DNA of 60,522 bases from positions 1 to 60,522 of the forward strand of contig JAZOLJ010000008.1 of assembly GCA_045652845.1 (NCBI GenBank), in the 5' to 3' direction. The position numbers and the translations under genes are program-made. The notes under the pieces are model-generated. The model did no database searches. It saw only the letters and a list, made by a program, of their open reading frames with translations, and had not been told where the DNA came from. The DNA is from Eubacteriales bacterium. Lineage in GTDB: Bacteria > Bacillota > Clostridia > Oscillospirales > CAG-272. Every line of letters starts with the position of its first letter. Positions within the stretch are counted from its first letter, which is position 1. Positions 24,740 to 44,554 of this stretch are shown one piece after another.

Positions 24740-24775
24740 ACCTTTTCCTTTCTTGTTTTTGGCAAAAAAGCGCAG

Positions 24776-25417: not shown

Positions 25418-25486
25418 ATATACCTCACCTTTGTGATGTCAAGCGCGAGTGCGAAAGCCCGCGCCTATTTTGATGCATAAACGCGC

Positions 25487-25795: not shown

Positions 25796-27546
25796 ATCGC
25801 ACCGTTTTGCGTGGCGGTATCCGCCACACGCTCGGCGGCGCGCCGCGCACGCTCGGTCAATCCCTCAAGATCGGGCGCTGTGCGATTTTCCGCCACAGGC
25901 GTGTCCCTTTTTGCGGCAGACGCGCCCCCCTCACTGCCGTCACGCCGAAACTGTGCGATCCGTGCGCGCAAATTTTCAACACCCGGGAAATCCATAGCAT
26001 CAAGCAGCACCTCCGCCGCCGCCGCGTTGGCGGGATCAAAAACGCCCATTGTATAAAGACTTTTGAGCATCTCGTTGTACGAATATCTGGTATACGGGTT
26101 CTGTTTTTCAGCACGCACGTCGATATCAAAGATCGGGCGGCGTGAAAGTGGCGTTCCGTTTACCGAGAGCCCCGTTTGCTGCTCTTTAATATGTGAATTT
26201 GACCAATGCAGGTAGCGATTTCCGCCGTTTTTGCCGAGCACGCGGAAGCAACGCACCTCGCCGTAGAACTGGCGCACGCACTCCACCATCAAGCGCGCCA
26301 TCTCCACAAACGCGCGATAAGAGGCGCTGATGATGTCACGCATGCTCTTGTTGCCCGACTCCTGCAGTGCGGCGATCGCCGCAGCAGCCGTTACACCCGT
26401 ATCGGTAGAGCCCTGCAGCACGTCGCGGTTCGCCGTGGTTTCCTTTAGCTCCTTGATCTTGTCATTTTTGAGCTGCAGCCAGAGGGTATCTGGGGGTGCG
26501 ACCTCGATCTGGCGCAAGCGCTCCTCGTCGGGATCACCCTCCACGGAAACGATGCGCCTTGAAAGATCGCAAAATTCCTCCTCATTCACACCCGTGCTTC
26601 TCTTGCAAAAGTAACGCACACGCGTTGCCCAATCCATGTATTCGAGCAGATTGCGGTCCATGCGGTCGATATACATTTGCGGATCTCTGCCAAGGGCAAT
26701 AATTCCAAAGCCAAGCGTGCTTCCCTCAATGGGATACAGCACGTCAAGCACGAAGGGGTATTGCCCATGCTCGTACCATCCGTTTTGATAAAGCGGATCG
26801 TTTTCGGTAGAAAACAGCACCGTATCCCCTGCAAATTTGCAGTAGTGGAGCTGGCAACGCCCCTCGGGCGTGCGCTTTTTGTAATACCAATCCACAACCG
26901 CAACACGCCCCTCTCGCTCGCCCTGCGGGCAGAAAAAGGCATCAAGCTCACCCGCAGATTTTCCGTCATAGCGGGGAAAGCGCGCACGCAGTGCGGAAAT
27001 CTCCATCTCCTCAACAAAATATACCGAGCGTGAATGCTGCAGGCTTTTTACATTCGGCTGCCAATAAAGGTTTAAAAGATCCACACGGCGCACGTCAATG
27101 TCCCCTATCCCGTTTTCAAGCTCGGTGTTATAGAAAACACCCCACGCGCACACACCGTGCTTGAGCTTATACCACATATTATCGGAATACGCTCCCGCAA
27201 AGCCCGAGCGATCCAAAATAACGGGCAGAATGGCGGAAAGCGCACGTGCATCCTCCTCGTCGCACTCCTCGCGCGGCAGACAAACTGCGGTGGGAATGTT
27301 TTCCATCAGATCGGCGTGCTTTTGCATCAAGGCGTTAAAAAGCCACGCAGAGGTAGGGGCTGTGACCTCGCCGTCGCTATTTTTGCGTGCGCGCGGCGCC
27401 ATACGCAGGCGATACCAATCCTCCTCATCGCGCACTCTTGCAGCAAAGCTCTCGCGCTCGCGTCGCCACGCAAGCAGCTCCTCCATGGCAGCACGCACCT
27501 CTGCCTTTCCTATCACTGTTTTTCTTCTCATTTTCTCTCCTTTCAC
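25792..27546 (-). CDS. Portal protein
   Basis: 584 aa, located directly after TerL with an ATGA overlap. Size and position are typical. An alternative start lies 5 codons in, with AAAGGAG upstream. Confidence 0.7.
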   Translation of the reverse strand: MKGEKMRRKTVIGKAEVRAAMEELLAWRRERESFAARVRDEEDWYRLRMAPRARKNSDGEVTAPTSAWLFNALMQKHADLMENIPTAVCLPREECDEEDARALSAILPVILDRSGFAGAYSDNMWYKLKHGVCAWGVFYNTELENGIGDIDVRRVDLLNLYWQPNVKSLQHSRSVYFVEEMEISALRARFPRYDGKSAGELDAFFCPQGEREGRVAVVDWYYKKRTPEGRCQLHYCKFAGDTVLFSTENDPLYQNGWYEHGQYPFVLDVLYPIEGSTLGFGIIALGRDPQMYIDRMDRNLLEYMDWATRVRYFCKRSTGVNEEEFCDLSRRIVSVEGDPDEERLRQIEVAPPDTLWLQLKNDKIKELKETTANRDVLQGSTDTGVTAAAAIAALQESGNKSMRDIISASYRAFVEMARLMVECVRQFYGEVRCFRVLGKNGGNRYLHWSNSHIKEQQTGLSVNGTPLSRRPIFDIDVRAEKQNPYTRYSYNEMLKSLYTMGVFDPANAAAAEVLLDAMDFPGVENLRARIAQFRRDGSEGGASAAKRDTPVAENRTAPDLEGLTERARRAAERVADTATQNGAI

Positions 27547-28949
27547 CGCATTTCGCTGCGGTAGGCGTATTGCTTGATCTCGCGGTCAAGCGGATCAAAA
27601 AGCCTTGCCACCGTGTGCACTCTTGGCACGGCGGGGCGCATGGGAACAAGCATACAAAGATACCGCGTTTCATCGGCAATGTGATCCTCCATATCACTGT
27701 CAACGTCCTCCACGTGTGTGCGGCTGTACTGTAATTGCGGTACCGTGCGCAAAAATTCCTGACACGTGGAAAATACGTAAAGCATTGGTATACCGTTTGC
27801 ATCAAAGCTCAATCGGTTATGAAGCTGCATCCAGCCCGCCACACGTCGATTGTCACCGCGCTCAAAATAAACGCCGCAACGCTCGGCAGTTTGCGCCACA
27901 GACTCGCCGCGCGAGGCATCCCAAATGGCGGGGTCGGCAACTCCTGTGATCTGCTTGCCGCCAAGCCACGGATGCTCACGCTCGATGCGCGCGATCTCTC
28001 GAAAGATCTCCTCTGGGGACATGCGCACGCCCACGTTTGCCTCGCCGCGCACGCACCCGTAAAATTCCATGATGCGATAGAGCCTCCCATCGTGATCCTT
28101 TGCCCACCAGCCAACCGAAAAGGGCTTAGCGTAGCCAAAGTCAAAGGAGCGATACACCCGCCATTCGGGGGGCGGCGTAAAGGGCTCGATCACGTGTGTA
28201 TGGCGTCTGTCGGCATAATGGGCAGGGTCGTTGCGCAGCTCCTCAAAGACCTGCCCCTCATATACGTTCCAATCGCCCTCAAGGTGCGCGCGACGTTTGT
28301 GCGCGGGCAAAGCCTCAAGGCGGCGCACGTATTCGGGGTCTGCGTCCATTAGCACCCGATTATCATAAACCACGGCAGGAATAAAGGCATAATCCTCTGC
28401 CCGCTCGGACGCCTCGAAGCGGCGATCGATAAACAAACGCTTGATATAGGCGTGCCCTACCCCACCGGGGTTGCAGGTATAATACACACGCGCCGTGAAA
28501 TTCCTTTTGGTGGTGCGCAGTGCCGTGCAAATAAACACGATCCATTCCTCCTTAAAGTGCGTCGCCTCCTCAAAGCCGATCACGTCATATTCCGCGCCCT
28601 GATATTGCAGCACGTCACTGTCGGCATCGCAATAGCCGAGCGTGAGGCGCGATCCGTTTGGAAAAATAAACGCGCGCTCGTCCTTTTTAAAGCCGGCGTA
28701 TCCCGCCAGCTCGCTTTGCAGCGGCAGAATGTGATTTTCGCGCAGCTCCTGCAGGGTGCGGCGCAAAAGCAACAGGCGCAAATTCGGATATCGCATGGCA
28801 AGCATCACCATTTTGCGCCGCATTGCCCACGATTTACCTCCACCACGCGCACCGCCGTATGCCGTATGACGGGCACTTGAGCGAAAAAACTCGCGCTGCC
28901 GCGCGTTTGGCACCTCACGGCGCAGCCTTTGAAAGATCAGCGGCTCCAT
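27543..28949 (-). CDS. Terminase large subunit
   Basis: 468 aa. Walker A YGGARGGGKSW, Walker B-like YDVIGFEEATHF, and a C-terminal nuclease-like domain with acidic motifs. Confidence 0.9.
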   Translation of the reverse strand: MEPLIFQRLRREVPNARQREFFRSSARHTAYGGARGGGKSWAMRRKMVMLAMRYPNLRLLLLRRTLQELRENHILPLQSELAGYAGFKKDERAFIFPNGSRLTLGYCDADSDVLQYQGAEYDVIGFEEATHFKEEWIVFICTALRTTKRNFTARVYYTCNPGGVGHAYIKRLFIDRRFEASERAEDYAFIPAVVYDNRVLMDADPEYVRRLEALPAHKRRAHLEGDWNVYEGQVFEELRNDPAHYADRRHTHVIEPFTPPPEWRVYRSFDFGYAKPFSVGWWAKDHDGRLYRIMEFYGCVRGEANVGVRMSPEEIFREIARIEREHPWLGGKQITGVADPAIWDASRGESVAQTAERCGVYFERGDNRRVAGWMQLHNRLSFDANGIPMLYVFSTCQEFLRTVPQLQYSRTHVEDVDSDMEDHIADETRYLCMLVPMRPAVPRVHTVARLFDPLDREIKQYAYRSEMR

Positions 28950-30965: not shown

Positions 30966-31015
30966 GCAAAAAGAGACCCGCCGATTGGGAATTCCCAACC
31001 GACGGTTTTTGTTGT
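30966..31015. terminator. Terminator between the ImmA gene and the ABC operon end
   Basis: Imperfect hairpin ccgccgattggg-aatt-cccaaccgacgg flanked by aaaaagaga and tttttgttg. Confidence 0.55.
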
Positions 31016-31036: not shown

Positions 31037-32149
31037 TTATCCAACGATACCCGAACGCTCGATACCCTGTACCAAATGTCTTTGGCAGAAGATGTAAAGA
31101 ATGATAAGCGGGAAGCAAGCCATCAGACCGCAAGTATAGTTGATCGCCTGCTTGAATCCTCCGCCGCCACCGGGCAGGTTTGAATAGATCGTTTGAAGTG
31201 TTGCGGGGTGCTCAAGCTTTGGCAGATAGGTCATAAATGACGGAGGAGCACCCGTGAAGAACAGCGGGAGATAGAAGTCATCCGTCCACTGCCAGCAGAA
31301 CGCAAACAAGAATACAGTAATCAGCATCGGCACGGACAGGGGCAAGATAACCTGTATAAAGGTACGGAAGGTATTTGCACCGTCGAGGTATGCGGATTCC
31401 TCAAGCTCATCGGGCACGCCGCGGAAGAACTGGCGCAGCAAGAAAATGTAAAGACCGTTCTTGAAGGCAAAGCCTGTAGCCGACATCAAGAGGATCGGCA
31501 CAACGCTTCTGATCGTGCTGATACCGCCAATGAAGCTTTCGGGCAAGATCTTGATCTTTGCAAGTACTGCGTCAAGCCCCTCGATGCCCGTGCGCGCACC
31601 ACCCGCCAGGAAGTTCAGGATACCGAAAATATCCATGTGCTGGAAGCGGTAGAAGATCGCAGACTGCATCGTACCGTGAGGGATCGCAAGTGACAGAACA
31701 ACCAGGAAGAAGACCACCTTTGCGCCGCGGAATTTAAATTTCGCAAGGCCGTAACCGATAAGTGCACAGGAAAAGGTCTGCAGAATTGCACAGCCAAGAG
31801 AAAACGCGAGCGTGAGGAAAAAGATCTTAAAATACTGGAGTTCGACGATGATCGACTTATAAATTACTGCAGAGAACGCGCGAGGCACGTTCACAACGGT
31901 AACGTCAGCAAAGTTTTCCGGCGCCATGATGGAGCGCATCACCAACGTGTAGAAGGGCCTAAGGACAACGAATGCGATACCGATCAAAAGCAGAAGGCGG
32001 AAGATGTACCACAGCACGTTTTTGGCAAAATACGAGGAAAGGTATTTGGCTTTTAGACGTTCCTTTAAGCCGGTGCGCTCAAAATCCACACGGATCTTGT
32101 TTTTGGACTCACGCACAACCTGCGGCTTATTATCCATATTTTGTGTCAT
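31037..32149 (-). CDS. Carbohydrate-type ABC transporter permease (MalG-like) with long N-terminal extension
   Basis: 370 aa. EAA loop LEESAYLDGANTFRTFIQVILPLSVP. An insert of about 60 aa lies between TM helices. Confidence 0.8.
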   Translation of the reverse strand: MTQNMDNKPQVVRESKNKIRVDFERTGLKERLKAKYLSSYFAKNVLWYIFRLLLLIGIAFVVLRPFYTLVMRSIMAPENFADVTVVNVPRAFSAVIYKSIIVELQYFKIFFLTLAFSLGCAILQTFSCALIGYGLAKFKFRGAKVVFFLVVLSLAIPHGTMQSAIFYRFQHMDIFGILNFLAGGARTGIEGLDAVLAKIKILPESFIGGISTIRSVVPILLMSATGFAFKNGLYIFLLRQFFRGVPDELEESAYLDGANTFRTFIQVILPLSVPMLITVFLFAFCWQWTDDFYLPLFFTGAPPSFMTYLPKLEHPATLQTIYSNLPGGGGGFKQAINYTCGLMACFPLIILYIFCQRHLVQGIERSGIVG

Positions 32150-32167
32150 ATTATCATCCTCCTTTCC

Positions 32168-33148
32168 TTAATCTCTTCTCTGATAGAAGACGTACGCGGA
32201 GAAGATGCCCGCTACGATACCAACTATCAGCAATACCAAGAGGAAATACATCCAACCCATTGCCGCACTGAGGCTCTTTGCGCCCTCTTTTGCAGCATTG
32301 AGGTACGTATTATTGATAAGCGTCATAACCGTATTCGAATCTGTGGTAAAGGAGTCGATGATGGTGTACACTGCGTTTACCAAGATCATCGGGCTTACCA
32401 TAGGGAAGGTGATTTTCCAAAACGTTTCCCAAGAGGTAGCGCCGTCGATCTGACAGGATTCGTAGATCGCAGGAGAGATCGACTGCAGGGCGGCAAGGAA
32501 GATCAGGATCTGTACGCCCGAGCGATTGATAATGCCCGAAATGCTGGCAACGGCAGAGGAAATGTAGGTCACTAAGCCGGCACCAAATCCTAACCCGTCA
32601 AAGATGCTTGCAAGCAAGCCCTCAAGTGCCATGGAGGATTGCAGCTTTTCGGTTGCACTCTCCTCCATACCAAGATCCATCTCGTTGCCGGACGCACCGT
32701 AGGAGCTCGCCATGATCGACTCCATCATACCGGTGGATACCACAACGGGCAGGAAGAAGATAGCACGGAATGCCGCGCGGCCAACCATTTTCTGATTAAG
32801 AATCACGGCAACGAAGAGCGAGAAAATGAGAATTGCAGGAATATCAAACGCCATTTCCTGCAAGCCGGTCAGCAGGGATTTTGCGAAGGCTTCGTCTTCT
32901 ATCAGAGCCGCCGAGTAAAATTTAAATCCGACAAACTCTTTGGTAACGACACCCCTCACGGACGTATAGTTGTAAAAGCTATAGGAGATCGACTCCCACA
33001 GGATGGGCAAGTAAATGAATACCAGACCAATAAGGAACGGCAACACAAAGAGCCATCCTGCGCGCGACTTTCTCTTGTCAAGAGAGGCAATTTTTCTCTT
33101 TTTTGCGGGTGCAGCGGCTACTGCAGGCGCATTGACTTGATTTGTCAT
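32168..33148 (-). CDS. Carbohydrate-type ABC transporter permease (MalF-like)
   Basis: 326 aa. EAA loop IYESCQIDGATSWETFWKITFPMVSP. Confidence 0.8.
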   Translation of the reverse strand: MTNQVNAPAVAAAPAKKRKIASLDKRKSRAGWLFVLPFLIGLVFIYLPILWESISYSFYNYTSVRGVVTKEFVGFKFYSAALIEDEAFAKSLLTGLQEMAFDIPAILIFSLFVAVILNQKMVGRAAFRAIFFLPVVVSTGMMESIMASSYGASGNEMDLGMEESATEKLQSSMALEGLLASIFDGLGFGAGLVTYISSAVASISGIINRSGVQILIFLAALQSISPAIYESCQIDGATSWETFWKITFPMVSPMILVNAVYTIIDSFTTDSNTVMTLINNTYLNAAKEGAKSLSAAMGWMYFLLVLLIVGIVAGIFSAYVFYQRRD

Positions 33149-33163
33149 ATGTTTTTACCTCCC

Positions 33164-36100
33164 TTAAGAATTGGTGTGCATGATCACAACGTAATCATAA
33201 GCATCTACGTTGTAAACGATACCGTTCACTGTTGTTGTGATAGCATAGTCGTTAAAGTTAAGAATAAGCGACTTGTAGGCGACCTTCTTGCCGTTTTCAT
33301 CGTAATCACCGTAGGTAACCAGCACGACCTCGCTATCAACTGCATACTTGTAGTCGGTATTGGTGGTGGTGGTGCTTACGGTATCCTTAGCTACCGGCTC
33401 GGATTTGATCTCAAGCTTTTGTGCCAGCTTGTCGATCATACCGTCGGGCTCATCTGCGTTATCCTTGTTCACCTTAGCAAGCTTAATGCCAAGGCCATCG
33501 GCTGCCAGTGCTGCGTCATACAAGCTGATCAGGTCCTCAACGGAAAGATCGGCGTAGGAGCTCAAGTCGTGCAGCAGCGAATGGTCATAATTAAACTGCG
33601 CGCTCTTTTCACCGTAAAGATTATCGATCGCGTTGTAAGCAATTGCAATATCCTCAAGCATATCCTCTGCTGCCTCAAGTGTTGCGGCATCGGCGTTCGC
33701 GCTCACAAGATACTGATAGTTGGCAGTGGCTGCCTCCATCAAGCCATCAATAGTGGCTCTCATAATAACCAGCTCTGCCATAGGCTGTGCTACCTTTGCA
33801 GTGAGAATACGGGTAAATTGCGTTTTCTTTTCTGCAGAAGCTTGATCGGCAAGATACTCGTTCCAAGCAACCATCAGCTCGCTGGTTTCTGCACGCAGTG
33901 CCTGAAGAGCCTGATAGTCAGCAGCAAGCTTTAGCTGATAGCCTTCAATTCTGGTCTTGATCTGGCTGATGGTGGTGGTTGCGAGATTGATATTGTCAAT
34001 ACGCTCCTGCACAGCAGCTGCCTGCTTGGCAACCTCTTCGAGAGTGTCGCTCAGCAGCTCATCCTCATCGGGCACACGCTTGCTATCCTCAAGGAACATG
34101 TGGTCGATGATCAAACGGTGCTGTACGTCAAAGAGCACTGCGTTGAGCTCCTTATAGATCTCAACCAAGCGCGTTCTCCAAATATCATAGCGTACCGAGT
34201 AGTTCTGAGAAAGCATCTCGTCCTCTTTGAGGAGCTCGGTGTTGGCGTAGGAAAGCACGAAGTAGATGCCTGCGCCGCTTTCCATAGCCTTCAGCATTGC
34301 ATAGGAGAGGTTACCCTCGGTGTTCAAGGGGGTTCCTGCAAACTCTACGTAGCCGTGCAGCACCACGCCCATGAAGGGTACGGTTGCGTACTCGTCATTG
34401 TAGCGGTTGGAGGAAAGCGGAACGTCAAGAATGTAGTCTGCGTACTTCCAGGTAAAGGCGTTACCGCCATCTACCATAACGTCATATTCTTTAGAGGTGA
34501 AGTAATCAAGTGCCTGCATGACGTAATTCTTCGAATCCTCACGCAAAGACACATTCTCCTCGTTAAAGCTCGAGTTGAGGTCGCTACCCATGGTAGAAAG
34601 CGAAATTGCCTTGTTCTGATACTTGGCATATCTCTTCTCCAGCTTCTCATAGAAATGGCTGAAGGTTGCAGGCGACAGTACCATCTGGTAATGGCTCACC
34701 AGCGTTTGCTGCGTAACGGAGTAGGTACGCTTGGAGGTGTAACGGTTATCTACCGTACGTGCGCCGTACTTCTTCATATCTACGGAGCCATCGGGAGTTT
34801 GAGTGTAAGCAAAGTCAAAGTCGGGGAAAATGCCAAGCTCGGGATGCGCTGCAGCATACTCGAGCAGATCCTTAAAGCCGGATTTGCCGCCAACAGAGCC
34901 CTCCCACTTCAGCTTGTAGGGCACCTCGGAGAAAATACCGCCGTTGGCATAGCCCGTCAGCTTAAAGTTAACGTTGGAAACAGACTGACCGAGCAGGTAC
35001 TCGTACATGGTTTCGATATCCTCAAAGGAAGTCAGTGCCACGGAAACCGTTACGGGAACGGACATGATCTTCTTTACCGTATCCATGCAGCCAAAGGTCT
35101 CGATGTAAAGCGGGATCGACGCCGAAACATCATTCTCGCCAAGACGCTCGAAGCCGTTATCCTGGCCGTCAAGGTAATCACGATAAGCGCAAGCCATACC
35201 CATCCAAGAGCACTCGTAATATTTGTTAAGACCTGCTGCTTGCGCCGCCCCGTCATCAGACAGAATGATGTAGCACAGCTTATAGTCATCGGTATAACGG
35301 CGTGACGCATAAACCGCCCAGTCGGACTTCGAGGTGTCAGACTGTCTGGTAATGAAGGAAGGAACAACAGAGGCGTAATCTTGACCCTTCACATGGTTCA
35401 AGGCAATGGAAGCAAGCGTTTCGCCCTCTTCAATAATGGCGAGATAGCCACGGCTGGCCGAATTGCCATCCTTATCGGTGGCGATTTCCACCTGACCGAA
35501 CACAGGCATGCGCATCGGTGTGGTGTGAGCACCCACAACCGAGAAAAGTGCATAGTCGTTGCCGTAAACGCGGGTAATACGCTGAGAAATTGCCGTCAGC
35601 TCATAAAGAGCACCCGAACCGTCCGGGAGGAAGGAATAACCGGTATAGGTAGTGCCATTATCGAAATACTCTACCACCGGGGGCTCGGCAGGCGTGCCCG
35701 TGCCCTCGCTACCGGTCGCGGGCTTCACCTCGCGAGTGGGGTTGCCCTTGTAGCTGGCGCCCATGTAGGGCAGGATCTGCAGGTCGGTTACACGGTAAGA
35801 GGATTCGTCATAACGCAAACCGTTTGCAGGCATACAAACAGAAAGCCCGTTTGCACCGATCGTGTACTCAAGAGCCATTCTGAACACTGCGGGCGAGGTT
35901 GCCTTGTATTCATAATCTACCAGCTCGTAATCCTCGTCCATTTGGGCAAAGGAGTAATCGGGGCAGTATTCAAGGATTTTAGCCTCCAGCTCACGCAAAA
36001 CCTTGGTGTTCTCGGGGTCACCGTTGAATACGTAAATATCAATTCCCTTCTCTTCGGTTACAGGATATGCAGTAGCAATACCTATGCCGCCCTGCTGCTT

Positions 36101-36721
36101 CAGAGAAAAGTAAACCCAGAATTTGTTGTATTCAAAGTTGGGGAGATTTTCCTCAAGGGGCTTGAGGATCTTTTCCTCAAACGTCTTTCTCTCTATGCGC
36201 ATAGGCACGAGGAGGCGCGCAGAGATCTCGCCGATCGCGTATTCCACACGCACGCCGTTTTGAATAGGCGTGACGGCGATCTGCTCCTTAAGAACGGCAT
36301 CCTCAAAGCTGTTGAGTGTAGCAATATTCTTTTGGCTATCCTCATACTGGAGAATAATTTGAGATTTCATGGGGCTACGGGTCGCATCCTCAGGATTGCT
36401 TTCCTTTTTCATATCCCAGGGATTGGTAAAGAGGATCTCACCCGTGGCGTTTTTCTTGTATGCTACAACGCCAAGCCTTTCATCGCAGTAAAGCGAATAC
36501 TCACCGTTGTCGAAGTATTTGGTCATTGCCGCGAGGCGTGCCTCGGGGCTATCGTACGTGGTTTCAGAATAAAGCTCCAGCTGTTCCTTTACGCTAACAA
36601 CTTCTTCTTCCTCAGTGTCACCCGTAGTTGCCGAAACAGCAACGGCGGGGAATGCACATGCGAGCATCAGCACCGATAGAAGCGCACAAAGGAACCGCAT
36701 CAGCAGTTTTTTATTTTTCAT
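33164..36721 (-). CDS. Large secreted protein (1185 aa), DUF5696-like core plus about 250-aa coiled-coil region
   Basis: Signal peptide MKNKKLLMRFLCALLSVLMLACAFPAVAVSA. The blocks ILPYMGASYKG...GYSFLPDGSGALYEL...PVFG...GYLAIIEEGE recall the family I remember as DUF5696 (unverified). No catalytic motif is recognised. Confidence 0.6.
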   Translation of the reverse strand: MKNKKLLMRFLCALLSVLMLACAFPAVAVSATTGDTEEEEVVSVKEQLELYSETTYDSPEARLAAMTKYFDNGEYSLYCDERLGVVAYKKNATGEILFTNPWDMKKESNPEDATRSPMKSQIILQYEDSQKNIATLNSFEDAVLKEQIAVTPIQNGVRVEYAIGEISARLLVPMRIERKTFEEKILKPLEENLPNFEYNKFWVYFSLKQQGGIGIATAYPVTEEKGIDIYVFNGDPENTKVLRELEAKILEYCPDYSFAQMDEDYELVDYEYKATSPAVFRMALEYTIGANGLSVCMPANGLRYDESSYRVTDLQILPYMGASYKGNPTREVKPATGSEGTGTPAEPPVVEYFDNGTTYTGYSFLPDGSGALYELTAISQRITRVYGNDYALFSVVGAHTTPMRMPVFGQVEIATDKDGNSASRGYLAIIEEGETLASIALNHVKGQDYASVVPSFITRQSDTSKSDWAVYASRRYTDDYKLCYIILSDDGAAQAAGLNKYYECSWMGMACAYRDYLDGQDNGFERLGENDVSASIPLYIETFGCMDTVKKIMSVPVTVSVALTSFEDIETMYEYLLGQSVSNVNFKLTGYANGGIFSEVPYKLKWEGSVGGKSGFKDLLEYAAAHPELGIFPDFDFAYTQTPDGSVDMKKYGARTVDNRYTSKRTYSVTQQTLVSHYQMVLSPATFSHFYEKLEKRYAKYQNKAISLSTMGSDLNSSFNEENVSLREDSKNYVMQALDYFTSKEYDVMVDGGNAFTWKYADYILDVPLSSNRYNDEYATVPFMGVVLHGYVEFAGTPLNTEGNLSYAMLKAMESGAGIYFVLSYANTELLKEDEMLSQNYSVRYDIWRTRLVEIYKELNAVLFDVQHRLIIDHMFLEDSKRVPDEDELLSDTLEEVAKQAAAVQERIDNINLATTTISQIKTRIEGYQLKLAADYQALQALRAETSELMVAWNEYLADQASAEKKTQFTRILTAKVAQPMAELVIMRATIDGLMEAATANYQYLVSANADAATLEAAEDMLEDIAIAYNAIDNLYGEKSAQFNYDHSLLHDLSSYADLSVEDLISLYDAALAADGLGIKLAKVNKDNADEPDGMIDKLAQKLEIKSEPVAKDTVSTTTTNTDYKYAVDSEVVLVTYGDYDENGKKVAYKSLILNFNDYAITTTVNGIVYNVDAYDYVVIMHTNS

Positions 36722-36740
36722 TTTTGATCTCCTTTCGCAC

Positions 36741-38939
36741 TTACAGTCGGTAATTGATCTCGGACGCGATGTTGGTAAAGAAGCTTGCCATATCCATTAC
36801 AAGCGATGCAAAGAGCACACCGAGGAACATGATAAACGCCATACCGACAATGGTGCCGAGCGTGGTAACAAGGTTTTTACCCATGGTATAGTCGTGCGTA
36901 ACCATGGTGCCGAAGAAGATGAGCATACCCGCCCAGATGAAGCCAAGAACCATGATAAGGTTGAGAATATCAAGCTCTTCTGCCACAACAAAGTTAGAGA
37001 ACAGCGTTGCGGGAATGGAGGTAAGTGTGATCGGCAGCAACGAATATCCTACACTAATAAAGATATCCTTAAAGCTACCCTCACCCTCAAACAGAGTGGT
37101 AAGACACCAGTTTGCGAGCACGAAGAGCAGCACCGGCACGAATACCACAAGAATTTGCATGAAGATGTTTGACGTGCCTGTTCCCTGCGGATTCATCACG
37201 TAACCGGAGCCGATCGCACGGTAGAAGAAGGTTACAACGGTAATTGCCATGAATACCAACGCTGCGCGAACCGAGCCACGCTTTTCATGCTTCAGATCCC
37301 AGAAGCCGTCCATTGGATGGAACATTAAGTGGAACACGAAATATATCTCATCCTTAAAGGTGCGCTTTTTACCAGATACGGATACACGCTTGTTGATTTT
37401 GGCTGCATGCTTGAGGAATTTGCTAATAAGGAAGATGACCGCAAAGATCACAATAGGGATCATCAAGAAGAAGCGGGACATCCACTCCTTGCGAAGCTCT
37501 TTGTATGCAATCGAGTAATTTGCCGTATCATAAGCGGAGCGGTAATACTCAAGTGCTTCCTCGTATTTACCGCTACGGGCAAGGGATTGACCGATACCGA
37601 CATAAGCGGCATCGTAGTTGGAGTTACGCATCAGGATCTCTTTCCAGTCGTCGATCGCGCGGTCGTAAAGACGTGCGTTCTGATGGTAAAGAGCTCTAAC
37701 GAGAATGTCACCGTACTCTGTGCGGTTAAAAATGGTGATTTCACCGTCAATGGAGAGCACGAGGAAGGTGTCGTTTTGGTAGCAGATCGAACGGATCGAC
37801 TTCGCCCCGATGTTGCCGAGCTGATTACCGACGTCGCCGAATGCAAAGAGAAGATTACCGTCGTAGTCGTAAGTAAAGATCTTGCTGCGGTTATAGTCAA
37901 AGATCGTCCAAGTGCCCTCAGGACCGCACGCAACGTCCTCTACCTGAGAGATCGCCGACGCTGTTCCGGTAACCATATCTCCCTTGTAGTCGATCTCGCC
38001 TGCAGGCGGCCAAAAGCCGTTACGGCGCATGATCTCATCACCCGCGGGGTTCAGCATCTTACAGGGTGCGTAAGCACCGCTGGTGCTCTTCGAGGTGATG
38101 GCTCCCTCCATTTGGGCAAGCAATTCGGGATCATCAGGGGCTGAGATGGTGGCGTAAATAAAGCCGTCAGCATTGATCGTAATGTTGTTGTAGGGGTGCG
38201 AAATAACCTTGCTCGACCTATCGCGCTGCTCCTTGGTCTGGAAGCGTTTCCATACCTGATCCCACAGCGACAAAACCGACTGCTGTGCACCGATAAAGGT
38301 GGTAAACTCACCCTTATCCGTCATAACGATAATACCCTCTTTGGTCTCGGTGGAAACAACGTAAAGTCTTTCGTATGCATCTACAGCAACGGCAACCGGC
38401 CAGTAGATCGCACTCTCAGAGAAGAGGCTGGACTCGGGCTTTTCAATCACAGAATCAAATTCGCCCGTCATGCGGTCAAAGGTGACGATGCGGCTGTTTT
38501 GCGTATCGCATACAAAAATACGACCCGCATATTTCAGCTCACGCTTATCTCCCTCGCCCTCATAACGATCCTCGGTAACGAATACGCCCTGCGGAAGCTT
38601 GAACTCGTCTGCAACACCCTTATCGTTGATGAAATTCTTGATCTCAAAACGAAGGTGATAGTAACGGTCAAGACAAATGATACGGTTATTGCCGGTATCG
38701 GCAATGTACACGTTACCGTCAGCATCGGTTACCATATCACCGGGCTTGTTCAGCAACGTATCAAGACCCATTGAGTCTGCGGTCAGCGTTTTTTCAGCAA
38801 CGTATGCATCAGGTGAATAAAGCGCTTGACCGTCGATAGAATAGGTGTAAGTCGTATATGCCTGCGCGGCGCCAACCGGTATGGATACCACCATCAGGAG
38901 GGCAAACAGCACGCATATAACAGATATGAATTTTTTCAT
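36741..38939 (-). CDS. Signal peptide + NHL-repeat beta-propeller + TPR + C-terminal Yip1-type polytopic membrane domain
   Basis: 732 aa. NHL-like blades (DADGNVYIADTGNNRIICLD, GRIFVCDTQNSRIVTFD, ...). A TPR-like segment (YVGIGQSLARSGKYEEALEYYRSAY). Then 5-6 TM helices typical of Yip1/DUF1282-type domains. Confidence 0.65.
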   Translation of the reverse strand: MKKFISVICVLFALLMVVSIPVGAAQAYTTYTYSIDGQALYSPDAYVAEKTLTADSMGLDTLLNKPGDMVTDADGNVYIADTGNNRIICLDRYYHLRFEIKNFINDKGVADEFKLPQGVFVTEDRYEGEGDKRELKYAGRIFVCDTQNSRIVTFDRMTGEFDSVIEKPESSLFSESAIYWPVAVAVDAYERLYVVSTETKEGIIVMTDKGEFTTFIGAQQSVLSLWDQVWKRFQTKEQRDRSSKVISHPYNNITINADGFIYATISAPDDPELLAQMEGAITSKSTSGAYAPCKMLNPAGDEIMRRNGFWPPAGEIDYKGDMVTGTASAISQVEDVACGPEGTWTIFDYNRSKIFTYDYDGNLLFAFGDVGNQLGNIGAKSIRSICYQNDTFLVLSIDGEITIFNRTEYGDILVRALYHQNARLYDRAIDDWKEILMRNSNYDAAYVGIGQSLARSGKYEEALEYYRSAYDTANYSIAYKELRKEWMSRFFLMIPIVIFAVIFLISKFLKHAAKINKRVSVSGKKRTFKDEIYFVFHLMFHPMDGFWDLKHEKRGSVRAALVFMAITVVTFFYRAIGSGYVMNPQGTGTSNIFMQILVVFVPVLLFVLANWCLTTLFEGEGSFKDIFISVGYSLLPITLTSIPATLFSNFVVAEELDILNLIMVLGFIWAGMLIFFGTMVTHDYTMGKNLVTTLGTIVGMAFIMFLGVLFASLVMDMASFFTNIASEINYRL

Positions 38940-38954
38940 GTTTTTCCTCCTTAA

Positions 38955-39830
38955 TTAGTCTACGATACCGGAAGAGCCCATCGTTTCGATAATGTTGGAC
39001 TGCGAAATAACGAATACGAGGATCGGCACCAGCATCATAATAACCAAAGACGCTGCATGCGCACCCGCACGCTTCACACCGCCCGCCATGATCTGACCGA
39101 TGGCGTAGTTGAAGGATTTCAACTGCTCGGAATGGATATAGATCGAAGAACCCTTGTTCCAGAGATCCTGGAAGGAGTAAATGATCAGTGTAAGCCATGC
39201 AGGCTTAACCATGGGCATTGCAATGACCCAGAAGGTGCGAAGCTCGGAGGCACCGTCAAGACGGGCAGATTCGAGCACCGCATCGGAAACGTTGGTCTCC
39301 ATGAACTGCTTCATAAGGTAAAGACCCAGCGTGCTTACCCAAGCAGGCATAATCAGTGCCCAGTAGGTGTCGATCCAGTTCAGTGCACTCATTATAATAA
39401 AGGAAGTAATTGACGTAACCGTGGAGTGGAACATCAGGGATGTACGTATCGTTTTAAACATCCCTCTGCCACCCGGGAACTTGATCTTTGCCAAGGCATA
39501 CGCTGCCAAGGACGAGAAGAACAGGTTGCCCACAGTACCTACAACAGAGGTAAATACGGTGTTAAAGATGTAACGGGAGAAGGGCACCCACGAGGTGGTC
39601 ATCAGCATGAACAGATCGCGGAAGTTTTTAAACGTGGGGTTGCGAACGAAGAAACGAGGCGGGAACATCCACAGCTCGTCAAGGGGCTTGAGTGACTGCA
39701 TGACCACGTATACCATAGGCAGGAACATGAAGGCACCCAGAATAACCAGCATCACGCTGATGCCCGCATCACCGCCGGCCGAGCGGTTGAGTACGACCTT
39801 ATGTTTTCTTGTACGAAGTTTGTTTGACAT
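38955..39830 (-). CDS. Carbohydrate-type ABC transporter permease (MalG-like)
   Basis: 291 aa. EAA loop VLESARLDGASELRTFWVIAMPMVKP. Confidence 0.85.
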   Translation of the reverse strand: MSNKLRTRKHKVVLNRSAGGDAGISVMLVILGAFMFLPMVYVVMQSLKPLDELWMFPPRFFVRNPTFKNFRDLFMLMTTSWVPFSRYIFNTVFTSVVGTVGNLFFSSLAAYALAKIKFPGGRGMFKTIRTSLMFHSTVTSITSFIIMSALNWIDTYWALIMPAWVSTLGLYLMKQFMETNVSDAVLESARLDGASELRTFWVIAMPMVKPAWLTLIIYSFQDLWNKGSSIYIHSEQLKSFNYAIGQIMAGGVKRAGAHAASLVIMMLVPILVFVISQSNIIETMGSSGIVD

Positions 39831-39831
39831 A

Positions 39832-40767
39832 TTACTGACCCACCTTTGAAAGCACTTTCTTGACCAGCATGTTTGCGCCGATCATGACTGCAAAGAGGAC
39901 AACTGCGATCGCCGAGGAGTAACCTACCTCAAAGCGCTGGCCGCCGTAGTCATCCAAATGATGCATAATGGTATGTGCAGCGTAATCAACAGACGGGAAG
40001 CCGCACAGTGCCGTAACAACGCCACCGAAGCCAAAGGAGGACGTGATCGCCATAACGGCACCAAACATCAGCTGCGGTCTCATAGAGGGCAGCGTAATAT
40101 ACCAAAGCTCTTGCCAACGGTTACGCACACCGTCAACCGCACCTGCCTCGTACATCGAACGGTCAATACCCTGCAGACCTGCAATAAAGGACAGGAACGA
40201 GGTGCCGAGCGAGGTCCAAAGTGCAACCACGATACAAAGGGGCATAACGTAGTCGGCATCCTGGAACCACTGGATTTCGGTAGAAATGATACCGAGATCC
40301 AGCAGAATACCGTTGACCCAACCGTAGGAGTCGCCCGAGAAGAGAGTACCCCAGATCATGTATACCTGACCGGAAATGGAGGGTGCATAGAAGATAAGAG
40401 TTACCACCGCACGGATCTTAGGAGGCAGCTCGTTGATAAACCAAGCAACCATCAGCGACATCAGGTAGGAAACAGGACCTACGATAATCGCAAAGATCAG
40501 GGTGTTTTTACAAGCAATAATAAAGATATCGTCATCAAGGAACAGACGAATGTAGTTCTTGAGCCCCTGCCAAGTAGGCATTTCAAGCAGGTTAAAGTCT
40601 GTTAAACTGATCACTATCGAAAGGAACACGGGAACAACGGTGAAAAGAGTGAATAAGATCATATAAGGCGCTACCATTGCGTAGGCGACCTTATTGCGCT
40701 TCATCTCCTTCCACGTCCATTGCGCACGTGTCATGTCGGATCGGATCACCGCTTTTTTCTTTGACAT
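39832..40767 (-). CDS. Carbohydrate-type ABC transporter permease (MalF-like)
   Basis: 311 aa. EAA loop MYEAGAVDGVRNRWQELWYITLPSMRP. Confidence 0.85.
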   Translation of the reverse strand: MSKKKAVIRSDMTRAQWTWKEMKRNKVAYAMVAPYMILFTLFTVVPVFLSIVISLTDFNLLEMPTWQGLKNYIRLFLDDDIFIIACKNTLIFAIIVGPVSYLMSLMVAWFINELPPKIRAVVTLIFYAPSISGQVYMIWGTLFSGDSYGWVNGILLDLGIISTEIQWFQDADYVMPLCIVVALWTSLGTSFLSFIAGLQGIDRSMYEAGAVDGVRNRWQELWYITLPSMRPQLMFGAVMAITSSFGFGGVVTALCGFPSVDYAAHTIMHHLDDYGGQRFEVGYSSAIAVVLFAVMIGANMLVKKVLSKVGQ

Positions 40768-40809
40768 GTTTTTTCTCCTTACAGCGCTAAATTATAATGT
40801 AACCAAATC

Positions 40810-43800
40810 TCACGCCAGAACGAGGATTGCCCTCTCGATGGCTGTGATAGTACCCGCAAATGCCGTAGCATCAAGTGCCTTCATATTGTTTGAAGCACTG
40901 ACAAGCACGTGATACTCGACCAGATCGTAATCCTCGCGCGCGATATCGCCCAGGATATCACCGAGAATTGCTTTGGCAGCAGTTACCGACGAATGATTTT
41001 CGCCAAGCTTCTTCACGTCGGCCTCGAATGCAGCAGCAAACTCATCAAGACGCTTGCTCTTCAGCGTTTGACCGATCTCAAGGGTCTCAAGACCGAACTC
41101 CTCACGCTTACGGGAGATCTCCTTGTTGATGATCGTGATGTAGCTCTGCAATTCCTCGGTAGGATCCGCATTGTCGTTATATGCGGCAAGGAAAGCAAAA
41201 TTGGTATAACGGCCAATAATGTAGCTGCCGGGATAGTTGGGGATAGATGCGAGGTTGTTGAACTGCTTTTGAAGCTGCTCGTACTCCTCATAGGTCCAAG
41301 GCATTTCCTTCAACGCGTTAAGGTTTGCGGTTGCATGCTTTGCGGAGGGACCGATGATCGCTACCATCTCGTTTGAGTAGTCAACCTGACACCGGGCACC
41401 CGAATGCCAAGTCATAAACTCCCAAGCACGTGCCTTATCAAGCTCGCCCGCCTCACCGCCTTCGCTGCCGCAGCCGTTCATCATAACGATGGCGGAGGTG
41501 GTTGCAACGCTTACGTTATTGATGTAAACACTGCCATCCTCTCGCGTGGTCTCAATACCGGGCATCGGGTAGAAGCCCCACAGACCGCGGATCTCGGTTG
41601 CAAAGACGATCAGCTGGTTGTAGGTGCCGTTGTAGGACGCAAAGCCGATCGGCATCTCACCGGTACGGAAGCGGTTTGCAAAGTCGTAGGATTTCGGGAA
41701 GGAATACATGGTAAAGAAGCTACACATGGTATCAAACGCCTCAAGACCAACGTTAGAATCAAGGTTGATGCGCATGCCGTCATCTGCAAAGAGTGTACCG
41801 CCCATTTGATAAAGGAAGACCTTGTAATCCTGGTGCATACCGATCTGCATGTTGTTTGCCTGCAGAGTAGGAATTGCTGCCAGCACGTCATCCCACGTTC
41901 TCGGAATCTCGATGTCGAGGTCCGCAAGAACATCCTCACGCACAAACATCATGGTAAAGTTCTGCGTTTCGGGCAGACCGTAGCAGTGGTAAACACCCTC
42001 GGCATCCTCAATGCCGAGCACCGCCATAGCGGCATCATTGAAGTTTTCCTCAACATAGCTATCAAAGCCACTCATTCCCTCAATGGGCAAAAGCGCGCCA
42101 CGGATCGCGTAGTTGATAACGTTGTCCTCGCTGACGCCGATGTAAACGTCGGGGCCCATGCCCGCGAGAACCGAGGGCAGCAGCGCACCGCCGGCAACCA
42201 GCTTAAGGTTTACGGAGGTGTTAAGCTGGCTGTTGGGAGTGTAATCGTTATTGATAAGGTTACGAAGAACCTGTGCCTGGTCACGGCCGGTAGCGATCCA
42301 CACGTCGATGGCGCTGGATGCGTCGACATTCTCAGCAGTGGCGCCCATACGGTCGTAGTTACGGAAGAAGGACATGATAAAGCTCGAAAGCTCGTGCACA
42401 AGACCTTCGAAGAAGCCTGCCGTTGCCTTCGGTGCCTCACCGCCAAGGGGCTGGATCACCAAATAGTCAAGCTGCAGGGGCTGAGTCTTGGCATCGCTTA
42501 CCCAAGTACCGAGAGAACCGATGTAGGACTTCAGCTGGTCGAGATATTTTGCGATCTCGCTCTCATCGGTGCCCATACGCTCAAGCACCCACGCCACCTT
42601 TTCAAGCGTTGCTACGCTCGAGCTCTTCTCGCCCGTAACCGCTGCAAGCTCTGCGGCAATCGCATACAGCTCACGGGACTGCAGGATCATATCGATCATC
42701 ACGTCGGGCATTACGCGAGCGAAGCCGTAATCACGGTACTCATCGGGGGCAGCGCCCGTCAGCTTCATGATAGCAAGGTAGTCATTATTGATGGAGGTGA
42801 GTGCAGCGTTTACACGGCGCACGATATCACCCGTAGAACCAAGACCTGCCTCCAGGGTGATCGTGTATTCGACACCTTCTTTAAAATAGAATTGGTAGGC
42901 AAGCGGATTGCCATTGGCATCAAGCGTACCGTCGTTGAGGAGCGCGGACTGCCATGCAGAGTTATAGTTAAAGCGGATCTGCCACGCTTCCTTGTAAGGA
43001 ACGGAGCCGTCATAATAGCCATACTCGCCTTCAGAAAGACCCTTGCTCTCGATACGAAGCGAACGGCAAACGTACATGCCGTCAAGCACGTTCTGGCGGT
43101 AGCGCGCCGCGATATTATACATACCGCTGCTGTTTACCTTAAAGGTGTAGCGTACCCACTGGCCTGCAGTCTGCCACTTCTCACCGCCGATGGTGTTAAG
43201 AATGGTGCAGGTCGTATCAGAGGGCAGGGTAGCCGCATCGGTACGGTCCTCGGCGGGATAAACGGTCTGCGAGGAGCTGGCACCCGCGAACTCCGCTTGG
43301 ATGAGCAGCTTATCGGTACCGGAGGCAGTAAGGCCCGCATCCGTATACTTCTTCAAGTAATCATCGTAGCCCTCAAGGCTATCGTGCGGCATCAGCGTAA
43401 TGGATTTGATCGCCAAGGGCTCGTTTACCGCCTCAAGCGTAATGCTGCGCTCGCCCGCCTCGAATACAAATTCAAGGCTCTCGGCATAGAAGCCGTCCGG
43501 ATCACGCAGCTCGTAAGTGCTGAACACGGGAAGCTGCTTCATGCCGGGGCGCAGCTCGTTACCATCGATATCCGCGGTAAAGAAGCGAACCGTATACTTG
43601 TTCACAAAATCGGTGAGTGCCGAGGTCCACACCTCGGGGATCTCAAGCTTAACGAAGCTTTCCCCATTTTCCGTCACCGTTTCGGCGCCCACAAAGCCTG
43701 CCGCCACAGCTGCCGCTTGAATATCGGCAACGGTAGCATCCTTGGTTGCCATTACCTTGGCATGAACGTACTGGTTGCGCCAGGTTTTGGGCAAGGTCAG

Positions 43801-44289
43801 AAAGCGCGCCTCTGCAAACGGGATTTTTTCGTCAATTCTGAGTATACGCTCGATCGATGCAGTCTTGGGCTTTTTATCAGCAGCCTCTTGACCGTCCTCG
43901 CCGACCACGTAACTGGGCAAATACTCAATAACAATGCTGTATTTTGCCGTGCTGGGGATGTTCACCTTCCAGGTTACGGAGTCTTTTTCGGGCGTGTAAA
44001 GCAACGCATGACCGTCCTTGCTAATCGACTGTACCTGCGCGGTCGTAGAGGCTGCATCATAGTTCGTGCCTATGATCACCACGGGCGCAGTAGCACCCGG
44101 AACGTCCGCATTCTCAGCCAGATACATTTCGTAGGAATCTGCGTTGAGCTGTTCCCTCAATCCCGCAGTGGTCGCATCGGTGGTCGAGCCGTCGCCCTCG
44201 GTAGCAGCGCCAACCGTCAGCGAGCCGCCGAAAACGAAAGTAACCGCCAAGACCAAAGCGAGAAGTCGCTGGAGCATCTTCTTTTTCAT
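40810..44289 (-). CDS. Giant extracellular solute-binding protein (1159 aa) with N-terminal CBM-like domains
   Basis: Start at MKKKMLQRLLALVLAVTFVF (GAGGAGG RBS; the ORF-track N-terminal 80 aa are rejected). The N-terminal half has two beta-sandwich-like segments (TWKVNIPSTAKYSIVIEYLP; VRYTFKVNSSGMYNIAARYRQN). The C-terminal half resembles family-1 SBPs (IDVWIATGRDQ...LPETQNFTMMFVR...). Confidence 0.65.
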   Translation of the reverse strand: MKKKMLQRLLALVLAVTFVFGGSLTVGAATEGDGSTTDATTAGLREQLNADSYEMYLAENADVPGATAPVVIIGTNYDAASTTAQVQSISKDGHALLYTPEKDSVTWKVNIPSTAKYSIVIEYLPSYVVGEDGQEAADKKPKTASIERILRIDEKIPFAEARFLTLPKTWRNQYVHAKVMATKDATVADIQAAAVAAGFVGAETVTENGESFVKLEIPEVWTSALTDFVNKYTVRFFTADIDGNELRPGMKQLPVFSTYELRDPDGFYAESLEFVFEAGERSITLEAVNEPLAIKSITLMPHDSLEGYDDYLKKYTDAGLTASGTDKLLIQAEFAGASSSQTVYPAEDRTDAATLPSDTTCTILNTIGGEKWQTAGQWVRYTFKVNSSGMYNIAARYRQNVLDGMYVCRSLRIESKGLSEGEYGYYDGSVPYKEAWQIRFNYNSAWQSALLNDGTLDANGNPLAYQFYFKEGVEYTITLEAGLGSTGDIVRRVNAALTSINNDYLAIMKLTGAAPDEYRDYGFARVMPDVMIDMILQSRELYAIAAELAAVTGEKSSSVATLEKVAWVLERMGTDESEIAKYLDQLKSYIGSLGTWVSDAKTQPLQLDYLVIQPLGGEAPKATAGFFEGLVHELSSFIMSFFRNYDRMGATAENVDASSAIDVWIATGRDQAQVLRNLINNDYTPNSQLNTSVNLKLVAGGALLPSVLAGMGPDVYIGVSEDNVINYAIRGALLPIEGMSGFDSYVEENFNDAAMAVLGIEDAEGVYHCYGLPETQNFTMMFVREDVLADLDIEIPRTWDDVLAAIPTLQANNMQIGMHQDYKVFLYQMGGTLFADDGMRINLDSNVGLEAFDTMCSFFTMYSFPKSYDFANRFRTGEMPIGFASYNGTYNQLIVFATEIRGLWGFYPMPGIETTREDGSVYINNVSVATTSAIVMMNGCGSEGGEAGELDKARAWEFMTWHSGARCQVDYSNEMVAIIGPSAKHATANLNALKEMPWTYEEYEQLQKQFNNLASIPNYPGSYIIGRYTNFAFLAAYNDNADPTEELQSYITIINKEISRKREEFGLETLEIGQTLKSKRLDEFAAAFEADVKKLGENHSSVTAAKAILGDILGDIAREDYDLVEYHVLVSASNNMKALDATAFAGTITAIERAILVLA

Positions 44290-44480
44290 GTTTTTCCTCC
44301 TCTTACTGCAGCTTGCAGTTCTTGATATTTGCACGGCACGAGCGCTCACTCTTGCCATGCGCAACGCATGCCTGCATCGCACGCGTGTAATAACGGAAGG
44401 CGGCAAACGCCGCCGCATCACCCTTACACAATGCAGACACCCGAGACCCATGCCACGCACAACCCTCGGTGTATGGCAAC

Positions 44481-44510
44481 ATTTTACCACAAAGGCAACC
44501 GCAAAGTCAA
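44481..44510 (-). promoter_or_regulatory. Candidate promoter of the 13-kb ABC operon
   Basis: On the minus strand: TTGACT (44510-44505), 18 nt, TGgTAAAAT (TAAAAT = 44486-44481). It implies a leader of about 185 nt. Confidence 0.45.
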
Positions 44511-44532
44511 GTATAATTTTCTCGCGCATAAT

Positions 44533-44554
44533 GCGCGCGAGCGCGCTCGCGCGC
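44533..44554. repeat. 22-nt perfect GC-rich palindrome upstream of the ABC operon promoter
   Basis: gcgcgcgagcgcgctcgcgcgc is self-complementary. It overlaps a second imperfect palindrome, ctcgcgcataatgcgcgcgag. Confidence 0.85.

Follow-up and report, generated by a model that had tools for sequence, protein, structure and literature searches.

The stretch of DNA analysed here (hereafter the window) comprises the 60,522 nucleotides of contig JAZOLJ010000008.1 from a member of the Clostridia, Eubacteriales bacterium (GenBank assembly GCA_045652845.1). Between positions 31037 and 44289 of its minus strand lie seven genes, g1 to g7, which encode a very large solute-binding protein (g1), two pairs of ATP-binding cassette (ABC) permeases (g2/g3 and g6/g7), a membrane protein (g4) and a secreted protein of the Pfam family DUF5696 (g5). 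The reading favoured here, to which we give a probability of roughly 55%, is that this operon specifies a surface machine that captures, processes and imports a glycan by means of two co-evolving importer modules of the CUT1 type. Gene content and order, predicted folds, conservation and modular co-evolution were established in the analysis; beyond these we infer catalysis by g5, the substrate, a physical assembly of the proteins and an ATPase supplied in trans.

According to this proposal, carbohydrate-binding module (CBM)-like domains of g1 would hold a polymer or large oligosaccharide in the first module, and the MalE-type domain of the same protein would pass the substrate to the permeases g2/g3. 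In the second module g5, carried on a helical stalk of variable length, would cleave or bind the glycan and would have g6/g7 as partners. Products would enter through both g2/g3 and g6/g7, with ATP hydrolysed by an MsmK-type ATPase encoded elsewhere, and g4, with its Yip1 domain and its external NHL propeller and TPR, would probably be the scaffold. The extra helical regions of g1 and g5 and the lack of anchors outside g4 favour a non-covalent assembly.

Operon structure, conservation and the two modules

The seven open reading frames (ORFs) are arranged head to tail on the minus strand: g1 (40810–44289, 1159 amino acids (aa), secreted solute-binding protein), g2 (39832–40767, 311 aa, MalF/UgpA-like permease), g3 (38955–39830, 291 aa, MalG/UgpE-like permease), g4 (36741–38939, 732 aa, NHL/TPR/Yip1 membrane protein), g5 (33164–36721, 1185 aa, secreted DUF5696 protein), g6 (32168–33148, 326 aa, second MalF-like permease) and g7 (31037–32149, 370 aa, second MalG-like permease). 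Successive genes are separated by 42, 1, 15, 19, 15 and 18 nt. The g1 frame is open as far as 44529. Its start was placed at 44289, because this codon is preceded by the Shine-Dalgarno sequence AAGAGGAGG and the product read from it opens with a signal peptide (MKKKMLQRLLALVLAVTFVFGG...). A start at 44529 was rejected, since it has no Shine-Dalgarno sequence and would set an N-terminus of 80 aa ahead of the signal peptide.

The top site of the promoter scan was a sigma-70-type promoter at 44481–44510 (minus strand), consisting of TTGACT, an 18-nt spacer and a TG-extended TAAAAT, with 10 of 12 matches. At the other end, about 30 nt past the g7 stop, an intrinsic terminator was found at 30978–31005 (minus strand), with a 12-bp stem that includes eight G-C pairs and is followed by a T-run. 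The remaining promoter-like and terminator-like sites were weak, and their totals in the scanned region were not above those of shuffled sequence. Because of this layout, with its short gaps, one near-consensus promoter and one strong terminator, a single transcript for the seven genes is likely. A previous sequence-only reading of this DNA had described a seven-gene minus-strand operon with gaps of at most 42 nt and a single promoter; the ORFs, gaps, promoter and terminator were all found.

Conservation was surveyed in one genome per species. The scan returned 337 stretches encoding a relative, of which the best 80 loci were taken; all 80 belonged to uncultured gut metagenome-assembled genomes of Clostridia. 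Hosts of the carriers were goat, sheep, deer, yak, cattle, chicken, horse and human. The related loci compared numbered 88, of which 85 were analysed by tblastn with the window proteins and three have a stalk-less or divergent g5. Gene order 1234567 was observed in 70 of the 85 loci, the other 15 all being cut by contig ends, and the three further loci showed the same seven-gene order. Order and spacing were invariant in the 88 loci, down to 35% g5 identity, and g5 homologues at 42–47% identity were found in this arrangement of seven genes, with flanking genes that differed. A comparison of gene neighbourhoods had been suggested together with the sequence-only reading, and it established a conserved seven-gene unit whose gene order is unchanged in at least 80 species.

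Identity to the window proteins ranged from 72 to 94% for g2, from 74 to 92% for g3 and from 35 to 79% for g5. Median pairwise identity across species was 78.1% for g3 and 75.6% for g2, as compared with 72.0% for alanyl-tRNA synthetase; it was 69.5% for g6, 67.0% for g7, 60.8% for g4, 55.0% for the g5 core and 53.4% for g1. This pattern across species pairs agrees with a core locus that is passed on vertically under strong constraint and whose exposed parts evolve faster.

Covariation among the genes was analyzed by a mirror-tree approach in 61 sequences (60 loci plus the window), using residual distances with the g4 distance as control. Residual correlations were high within the group g1, g2 and g3 (r 0.70–0.72) and within the group formed by the g5 core, g6 and g7 (r 0.54–0.67), with Mantel p ≤0.0005 in both cases by a test that is liberal for related sequences. 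Between the two groups, r ranged from −0.02 to −0.40, and g4 tracked neither of them. These correlations support the proposal, first made from the gene order, that there are two transporter modules and that each has an oversized partner outside the cell, and they support an association of the second permease pair, as judged from sequence distances, with the DUF5696 protein. In addition, three loci with almost no g5 linker were also devoid of the helical tail of g1 and of an insert in its first beta-sandwich. This joint absence may go back to a single evolutionary event and is therefore no more than suggestive.

The separate evolution of the two groups, the failure of g4 to co-vary with either module and the low identity between the permease pairs (24–26%) would also suit two ordinary, independent sugar importers that are neighbours by chance, g4 and g5 then being unrelated surface proteins. 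The invariance of the seven-gene order and spacing across the 88 loci makes this very unlikely. The presence of one conserved promoter and one terminator, the fact that the second permease pair never comes with a binding protein of its own, and the concerted absence of the g5 stalk and the g1 tail argue in the same direction.

Predicted fold and residue conservation of g5

Protein g5 matched Pfam DUF5696 (PF18952) over residues 263–879 with an E-value of 1.4e-117 and 394 bits (cutoff 25.6), which places it in this family. In its AlphaFold2 model (mean predicted local distance difference test score, pLDDT, of 75), a beta-rich N-terminal domain (aa 67–460) is followed by a (beta/alpha)8 barrel (aa 480–880), a helical stalk (aa 886–1102) and a small C-terminal beta domain (approximately aa 1125–1185). 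The DUF5696-like core and long coiled coil described previously correspond to the Pfam match and to the modelled stalk.

Foldseek searches with the g5 core retrieved two members of glycoside hydrolase (GH) family GH129, the 3,6-anhydro-D-galactosidase DagB (5opq, 8rzk) with an E-value of 3e-21 and the alpha-N-acetylgalactosaminidase NagBb (5wzn, 5wzp, 5wzq) with an E-value of 2e-15. The match extends over about 860 aligned columns with about 11% identity and target-normalised TM-scores of 0.59–0.65; GH36, GH5, GH13 and GH18 also matched the core, far more weakly. Both elements of the GH129 fold, the N-terminal beta-sandwich and the (beta/alpha)8 barrel, are present in the g5 model, in the same order as in DagB (PMC5698469). 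Since the active site of DagB receives an aspartate from the N-domain of the partner monomer (PMC5698469), the invariant aspartates that g5 carries ahead of its barrel are not out of place.

At the sequence level this relationship was not detected. Comparison of the g5 core with the sequences of the PDB, 5wzn and 5opq included, produced no match with the single sequence and only coiled-coil noise with a 48-sequence profile, and no glycoside hydrolase model of Pfam was matched by g5 or seven of its homologues at E-values up to 10. Protein g5 is therefore predicted to have a GH129-like fold, but it does not show the sequence similarity of GH129 proteins and is not a demonstrable member of that family. 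Accordingly, the earlier statement that the cassette holds no recognisable enzyme stands for sequence, where profiles find nothing, and does not stand for fold, where the GH129 match was obtained. Nor did any sequence profile assign g5 to a characterised family with a known substrate, an assignment that would have refuted the sequence-only reading. No paper mentioning DUF5696 (PF18952, IPR043751) was found in the literature searched.

Residue conservation was assessed in 151 diverse DUF5696 cores, drawn from a search with 3812 clusters at 50% identity. Residues D367 (within a PDGSG motif), D462, R727, N754 and H789 were invariant in all 151 cores; D389, N800 and E814 were conserved in 150, and E285 and K832 were nearly invariant. 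Two acidic residues at the end of barrel strand 4 were more variable: position 634 is Asp in 120 cores, Glu in 25 and Asn in 6, and position 636 is Asp in 131, Glu in 15, Asn in 4 and Thr in 1. These two positions are the candidates for counterparts of the catalytic aspartate of GH129 members (D435 in NagBb and D486 in DagB) and its partner carboxylates. Several loops that follow the barrel strands combine high conservation with low model confidence, as would fit substrate-binding loops or loops whose conformation depends on oligomerisation.

In g5 orthologues the core is retained together with a C-terminal domain of some 55 aa, and it is the linker between the two that differs; this linker ranges from 78 to 966 aa and is helical and poor in Pro and Gly. 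Their total length varies from 933 to 1998 aa, and the long versions contain no Pfam domain in the linker. Separately, in two roe-deer genomes (L008, 3255–6752; L013, 4871–8368) g5 aligns over its full length in an interrupted frame, leaving 495 aa, which points to a frameshift pseudogene or else to an error of assembly.

Within the favoured reading, a more specific scheme can be put forward tentatively, and with more doubt than confidence: g5, as a stalked TIM-barrel protein of GH129-like fold, would take the place of a classical solute-binding protein, cutting the glycan and feeding g6/g7 directly, within a Yip1-anchored and NHL/TPR-scaffolded Gram-positive surface complex inherited vertically as a core trait by a large, uncultured lineage of gut Clostridia. 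Such a hand-off from enzyme to permease, if true, would amount to a novel means of supplying a type I ABC importer with substrate. A related possibility, which we consider unlikely, is that g5 is no enzyme at all and acts as a glycosidase-derived binding protein that docks on g6/g7 in place of the canonical one. It would account for the lack of a dedicated binding protein for g6/g7, for the co-evolution of the g5 core with this pair and not with g2/g3, for the candidate nucleophile positions that are not invariant, for the conservation of the C-terminal domain on a stalk of such variable length, and for the apparently enlarged outside loops of g6 and g7. However, the five invariant polar residues D367, D462, R727, N754 and H789, located in the domain ahead of the barrel and in the barrel itself, would suit an active site no less than a binding site, and g1 could serve both permease pairs. 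Moreover, no importer of the MalFG type is known to have a partner other than a solute-binding protein.

Binding protein, putative membrane scaffold and permeases

The AlphaFold2 model of g1 (mean pLDDT 80) contains two beta-sandwiches (aa 70–300 and 378–482), a helical bundle (aa 484–601), a binding fold of the MalE type (aa 606–1064) and a C-terminal helical tail (aa 1076–1158). With this binding fold, Foldseek retrieved oligosaccharide-binding proteins with E-values of about 1e-14 and target-normalised TM-scores of 0.7–0.8. The targets bind sophoro-oligosaccharides, cycloisomalto-oligosaccharides, maltodextrins and lacto-N-tetraose, and GltA is among the structural matches. Protein g1 itself matched no Pfam model above threshold, those for solute-binding proteins included; its orthologues match PF13416 (SBP_bac_8) and PF01547 (SBP_bac_1) and bear the NCBI name "extracellular solute-binding protein". 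The model and the orthologue matches together give the cassette the MalE-type-fold solute-binding protein of a CUT1 importer. The beta-sandwiches reach CBM35 below the Pfam threshold only, as is the case in 15 of 25 orthologues. The former description of g1 as a protein resembling solute-binding proteins with two CBM-like N-terminal domains is thus sustained, and the other domain calls made at that stage needed only small corrections in the light of Pfam, models and orthologues.

The signal peptide of g1 contains no cysteine and has a VGA-A cleavage motif of the signal-peptidase-I type; hence it has no lipobox, and the lipoprotein anchoring usual for Gram-positive binding proteins is absent from g1. 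Signal peptides with motifs of this type and without a lipobox are also found in g4 and g5. Beyond the signal peptides, membrane-spanning hydrophobic segments occur, among these three proteins, in g4 only. Since g1 and g5 have neither lipobox nor membrane segments, g4 is, as judged from sequence features, the one protein that could evidently tether the large outside proteins to the membrane.

After its signal peptide, g4 has an outer part made up of an NHL beta-propeller (approximately aa 45–380) and TPR (aa 414–475), followed by one transmembrane segment (aa 491–509) and the multi-pass Yip1 domain (aa 537–706). The latter matched Pfam Yip1 (PF04893) over residues 537–706 with an E-value of 9.5e-15 and 55.3 bits (cutoff 28.6) and has hydrophobic segments at 555–577, 591–609, 650–676 and 697–715, so that g4 has both the score and the multi-pass character of the Yip1 family. 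NHL and TPR were recognised by Pfam too, and the top PDB sequence matches were the NHL propellers of PknD and of the designed protein 'Pizza'. No paper on the combination of Yip1, ABC permease and NHL was found in the literature search. There is a partial parallel in the YknWXYZ system of Bacillus, in which the Yip1-family membrane protein YknW is an accessory subunit that modulates assembly of the ABC transporter (PMC4887032). By contrast to the proteins studied here, YknYZ is an exporter of the MacB type and YknW has no NHL/TPR ectodomain.

All four permeases matched BPD_transp_1 of Pfam above the gathering score. NCBIfam places them loosely near UgpA/UgpE and MalF/MalG, g2 being weakly similar to UgpA, and their closest solved chains are SugB, AlgM2 and MalG, from sugar importers of the CUT1 type. 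EAA-type loops, which had been recognised in all four proteins, read YEAGAVDG in g2 (residue 206), ESARLDGAS in g3 (residue 187), ESCQIDGAT in g6 and ESAYLDGAN in g7 (residue 251); the two MalF/MalG-type subunits with EAA loops that characterise CUT1 (TC 3.A.1.1) are therefore present. Identity between the pairs is low (24% for g6 versus g2 and 26% for g7 versus g3), on which ground a recent duplication of the pair was rejected. The outside loops of g6 appear larger than those of g2, and those of g6 and g7 appear enlarged. As to the long N-terminal extension that had been ascribed to g7, this protein is indeed longer, but the extension exceeds that of g3 by only about 19 aa, and it is mostly through insertions in its first half that g7 gains its extra length.

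No ATPase of the MalK/MsmK type was found in the operon or in the flanks of the 88 related loci. The cluster had been described as lacking both an ATPase and a regulator, which holds here and in those 88 loci. The only ATPases of the window sit in operons of the ribose and Pot types; one of them, a PotA-like ATPase (18641–19777), was rejected as a dedicated partner since it belongs to a complete operon of its own. In streptococci, a single MsmK ATPase energises several CUT1 permease pairs (PMC3302838). Because of this precedent for shared ATPases, it is plausible by analogy that an MsmK-type ATPase is supplied in trans from elsewhere in the genome.

Regulation, neighbourhood and relation to known systems

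Upstream of g1, an alignment of 21 regions shows conservation of at least 80% for the stretch CTTGACTTT...GTGGTAAAAT.TTGCCATAC, which corresponds to the −35 box, the extended −10 box and, directly beyond the latter, its first following bases (TTGCCATAC). A perfect 7-1-7 palindrome, CGCGCATTATGCGCG, was read from the sequence at 44523–44537 (minus strand), some 12 nt ahead of the −35 box, and a GCATAATGCGCG-type motif occupies the same position in 18 related loci. The palindrome CGCGCATTATGCGCG is a candidate operator for a dimeric regulator encoded elsewhere. Between promoter and g1 lies a structured 5' leader of about 190 nt (44290–44480, minus strand), in which an internal hairpin precedes a U-rich tract. 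Its minimum free energy is −79 kcal/mol, with a z-score of −2.4 relative to shuffled sequence. For the seven closest species, a consensus structure of 56 pairs was obtained, 25 of them with compensatory changes; analysis of 16 divergent leaders with MAFFT/RNAalifold yielded almost no structure, only the seven closest species being aligned well enough. The leader matched nothing in Rfam at either the gathering or the E-value threshold and is a candidate cis-regulatory RNA.

No regulator gene lies within the cassette and none recurs in the flanks of related loci. Leader and palindrome could together constitute a new cis-regulatory element of an operon without a regulator gene, and a trans-acting regulator and/or a leader-based switch is likely, given the conserved palindrome and the structured leader with its compensatory changes. 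A Gram-positive polysaccharide utilisation locus consists of enzyme, transporter and regulator, the last of which is missing from the cassette.

The genes that flank the cassette differ among loci and are housekeeping genes, among them those for alanyl-tRNA synthetase, IscS/NifU, SpoIIE, NrdR and a CDP-alcohol phosphatidyltransferase. In the flanks of related loci, the genes met repeatedly are those for alanyl-tRNA synthetase, IscS/NifU, an FGGY kinase and a ribose-type binding protein, along with phage-like genes; glycoside hydrolases, regulators and ABC ATPases are not among the recurring ones. The FGGY-family sugar kinase is encoded convergently about 180 nt downstream of g7 in 17 loci (e.g. 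L013, 10575–12113), though the window lacks it; no other recurrent neighbour has a possible sugar-catabolic role. A PADLOC search matched g1, g4, g5, g6 and g7 to no defence-protein model, and the cassette is not a defence system.

Standing amid housekeeping genes and without a catabolic partner, the cassette may have a role unrelated to nutrition. One such role would be envelope maintenance, with g5 remodelling the cell's own wall or capsule glycopolymer and the importers recovering the fragments for recycling. The housekeeping neighbourhood, the retention without rearrangement in every related locus examined, permeases as conserved as alanyl-tRNA synthetase (g2/g3 medians of 76–78% versus 72%), the near-consensus promoter and the absence of regulator and catabolic genes all agree with it. 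Nevertheless we hold it improbable: nutrient capture is where CBM35-like domains and a binding protein of the oligosaccharide type are typically found, the conserved operator-like palindrome and the structured leader suggest regulated and not constitutive expression, and no cell-wall synthesis genes are linked to the cassette.

Several observations weigh against the capture and import of a glycan by two modules. No cytoplasmic glycosidase, catabolic enzyme or regulator accompanies the cassette, with the FGGY kinase of the 17 loci as sole exception, and loci for nutrient utilisation do not usually lack catabolic partners in this way. The two permease pairs have a single binding protein between them. 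No sequence profile ties g5 to any glycoside hydrolase family, its identity to GH129 proteins being about 11%, and no catalytic pair can be assigned in it, the strand-4 acidic residues D634 and D636 being variable. As for the covariation, to the liberal nature of the Mantel tests must be added that each module is a block of adjacent genes, so that recombination of sub-blocks could contribute to the signal. Finally, all carriers are uncultured.

The proteins of the cassette belong to the CUT1 permease and binding-protein families, to Pfam DUF5696 and to Yip1. CUT1 importers such as MalEFGK2 and LpqY-SugABC resemble it in their MalF/MalG heterodimers with EAA loops and in their MalE-fold oligosaccharide-binding protein, and the MsmK-energised systems of streptococci resemble it in having an operon without an ATPase gene (PMC3302838). 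By contrast, here two permease pairs share one binding protein; g1 is about 2.5 times the usual size, with two beta-sandwiches, a helical bundle and a tail, and has no lipobox; and a Yip1/NHL/TPR protein and a glycosidase-fold protein are obligatory members of the operon. From GH129 and GH129-like enzymes (NagBb, DagB) and the related GH101, whose fold g5 shares according to Foldseek and to the published architecture (PMC5698469), g5 differs in its identity of about 11% and the lack of a sequence-profile match, as well as in the added helical stalk and small C-terminal domain and in always being encoded within an ABC permease operon.

The nearest functional analogy is the bifidobacterial route for galacto-N-biose and lacto-N-biose (GNB/LNB), which couples the extracellular GH101 enzyme EngBF to an ABC importer with the binding protein GltA (PMC8106489): an outside enzyme with a fold of the GH101/GH129 type frees sugar for a MalE-fold protein and a CUT1 importer. 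In contrast to the cassette, that route has not been described as having its enzyme and transporter in a single operon together with a scaffold protein; conversely, the cassette has no linked downstream catabolic genes. In Bacteroidota, Sus-type complexes ('utilisomes') join binding, cleavage and import of glycans in one surface assembly. The likeness to them is one of concept only, an analogy and not homology, since here there is neither a SusC/SusD pair nor an outer membrane, and import would proceed through ABC permeases. The cassette points to a Gram-positive counterpart of these surface machines, in abundant, uncultured gut Clostridia of ruminants, poultry, horses and humans. For DUF5696, with its 3812 clusters at 50% identity, the analysis provides a predicted GH129-like fold and reveals ABC permeases as constant genetic partners, and makes the family a concrete candidate for a new family of carbohydrate-active enzymes.

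Other features of the window were recorded. Genes for a capsid protein, a P22-like portal and a large terminase lie on the minus strand at 23345–28949, 2–5 kb downstream of the cassette, and portal and terminase genes occupy the same relative position in 13–14 other species (including those of loci L021 and L023); these genes could mark a prophage site that has been conserved, or else a phage-like element that has been domesticated, for instance as a gene transfer agent. On the other side of the cassette, a giant minus-strand ORF of 2578 codons (50893–58629), with a likely start at codon 30 followed by a signal peptide, encodes a Gly/Ala/Thr/Val-rich protein that has no Pfam match and may be a large secreted surface protein. 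The segment 10001–12000, which covers the ORFs at 10241–11020 and 11106–12017, has a GC content as low as 0.40, as compared with 0.50–0.58 elsewhere in the window, and may be horizontally acquired DNA. A SpoVAD homologue (E-value 2e-125) is encoded at 20471–21580 (minus strand), and SpoIIE is encoded in the related locus L087; because of these sporulation genes, the carriers are probably endospore-forming Firmicutes.

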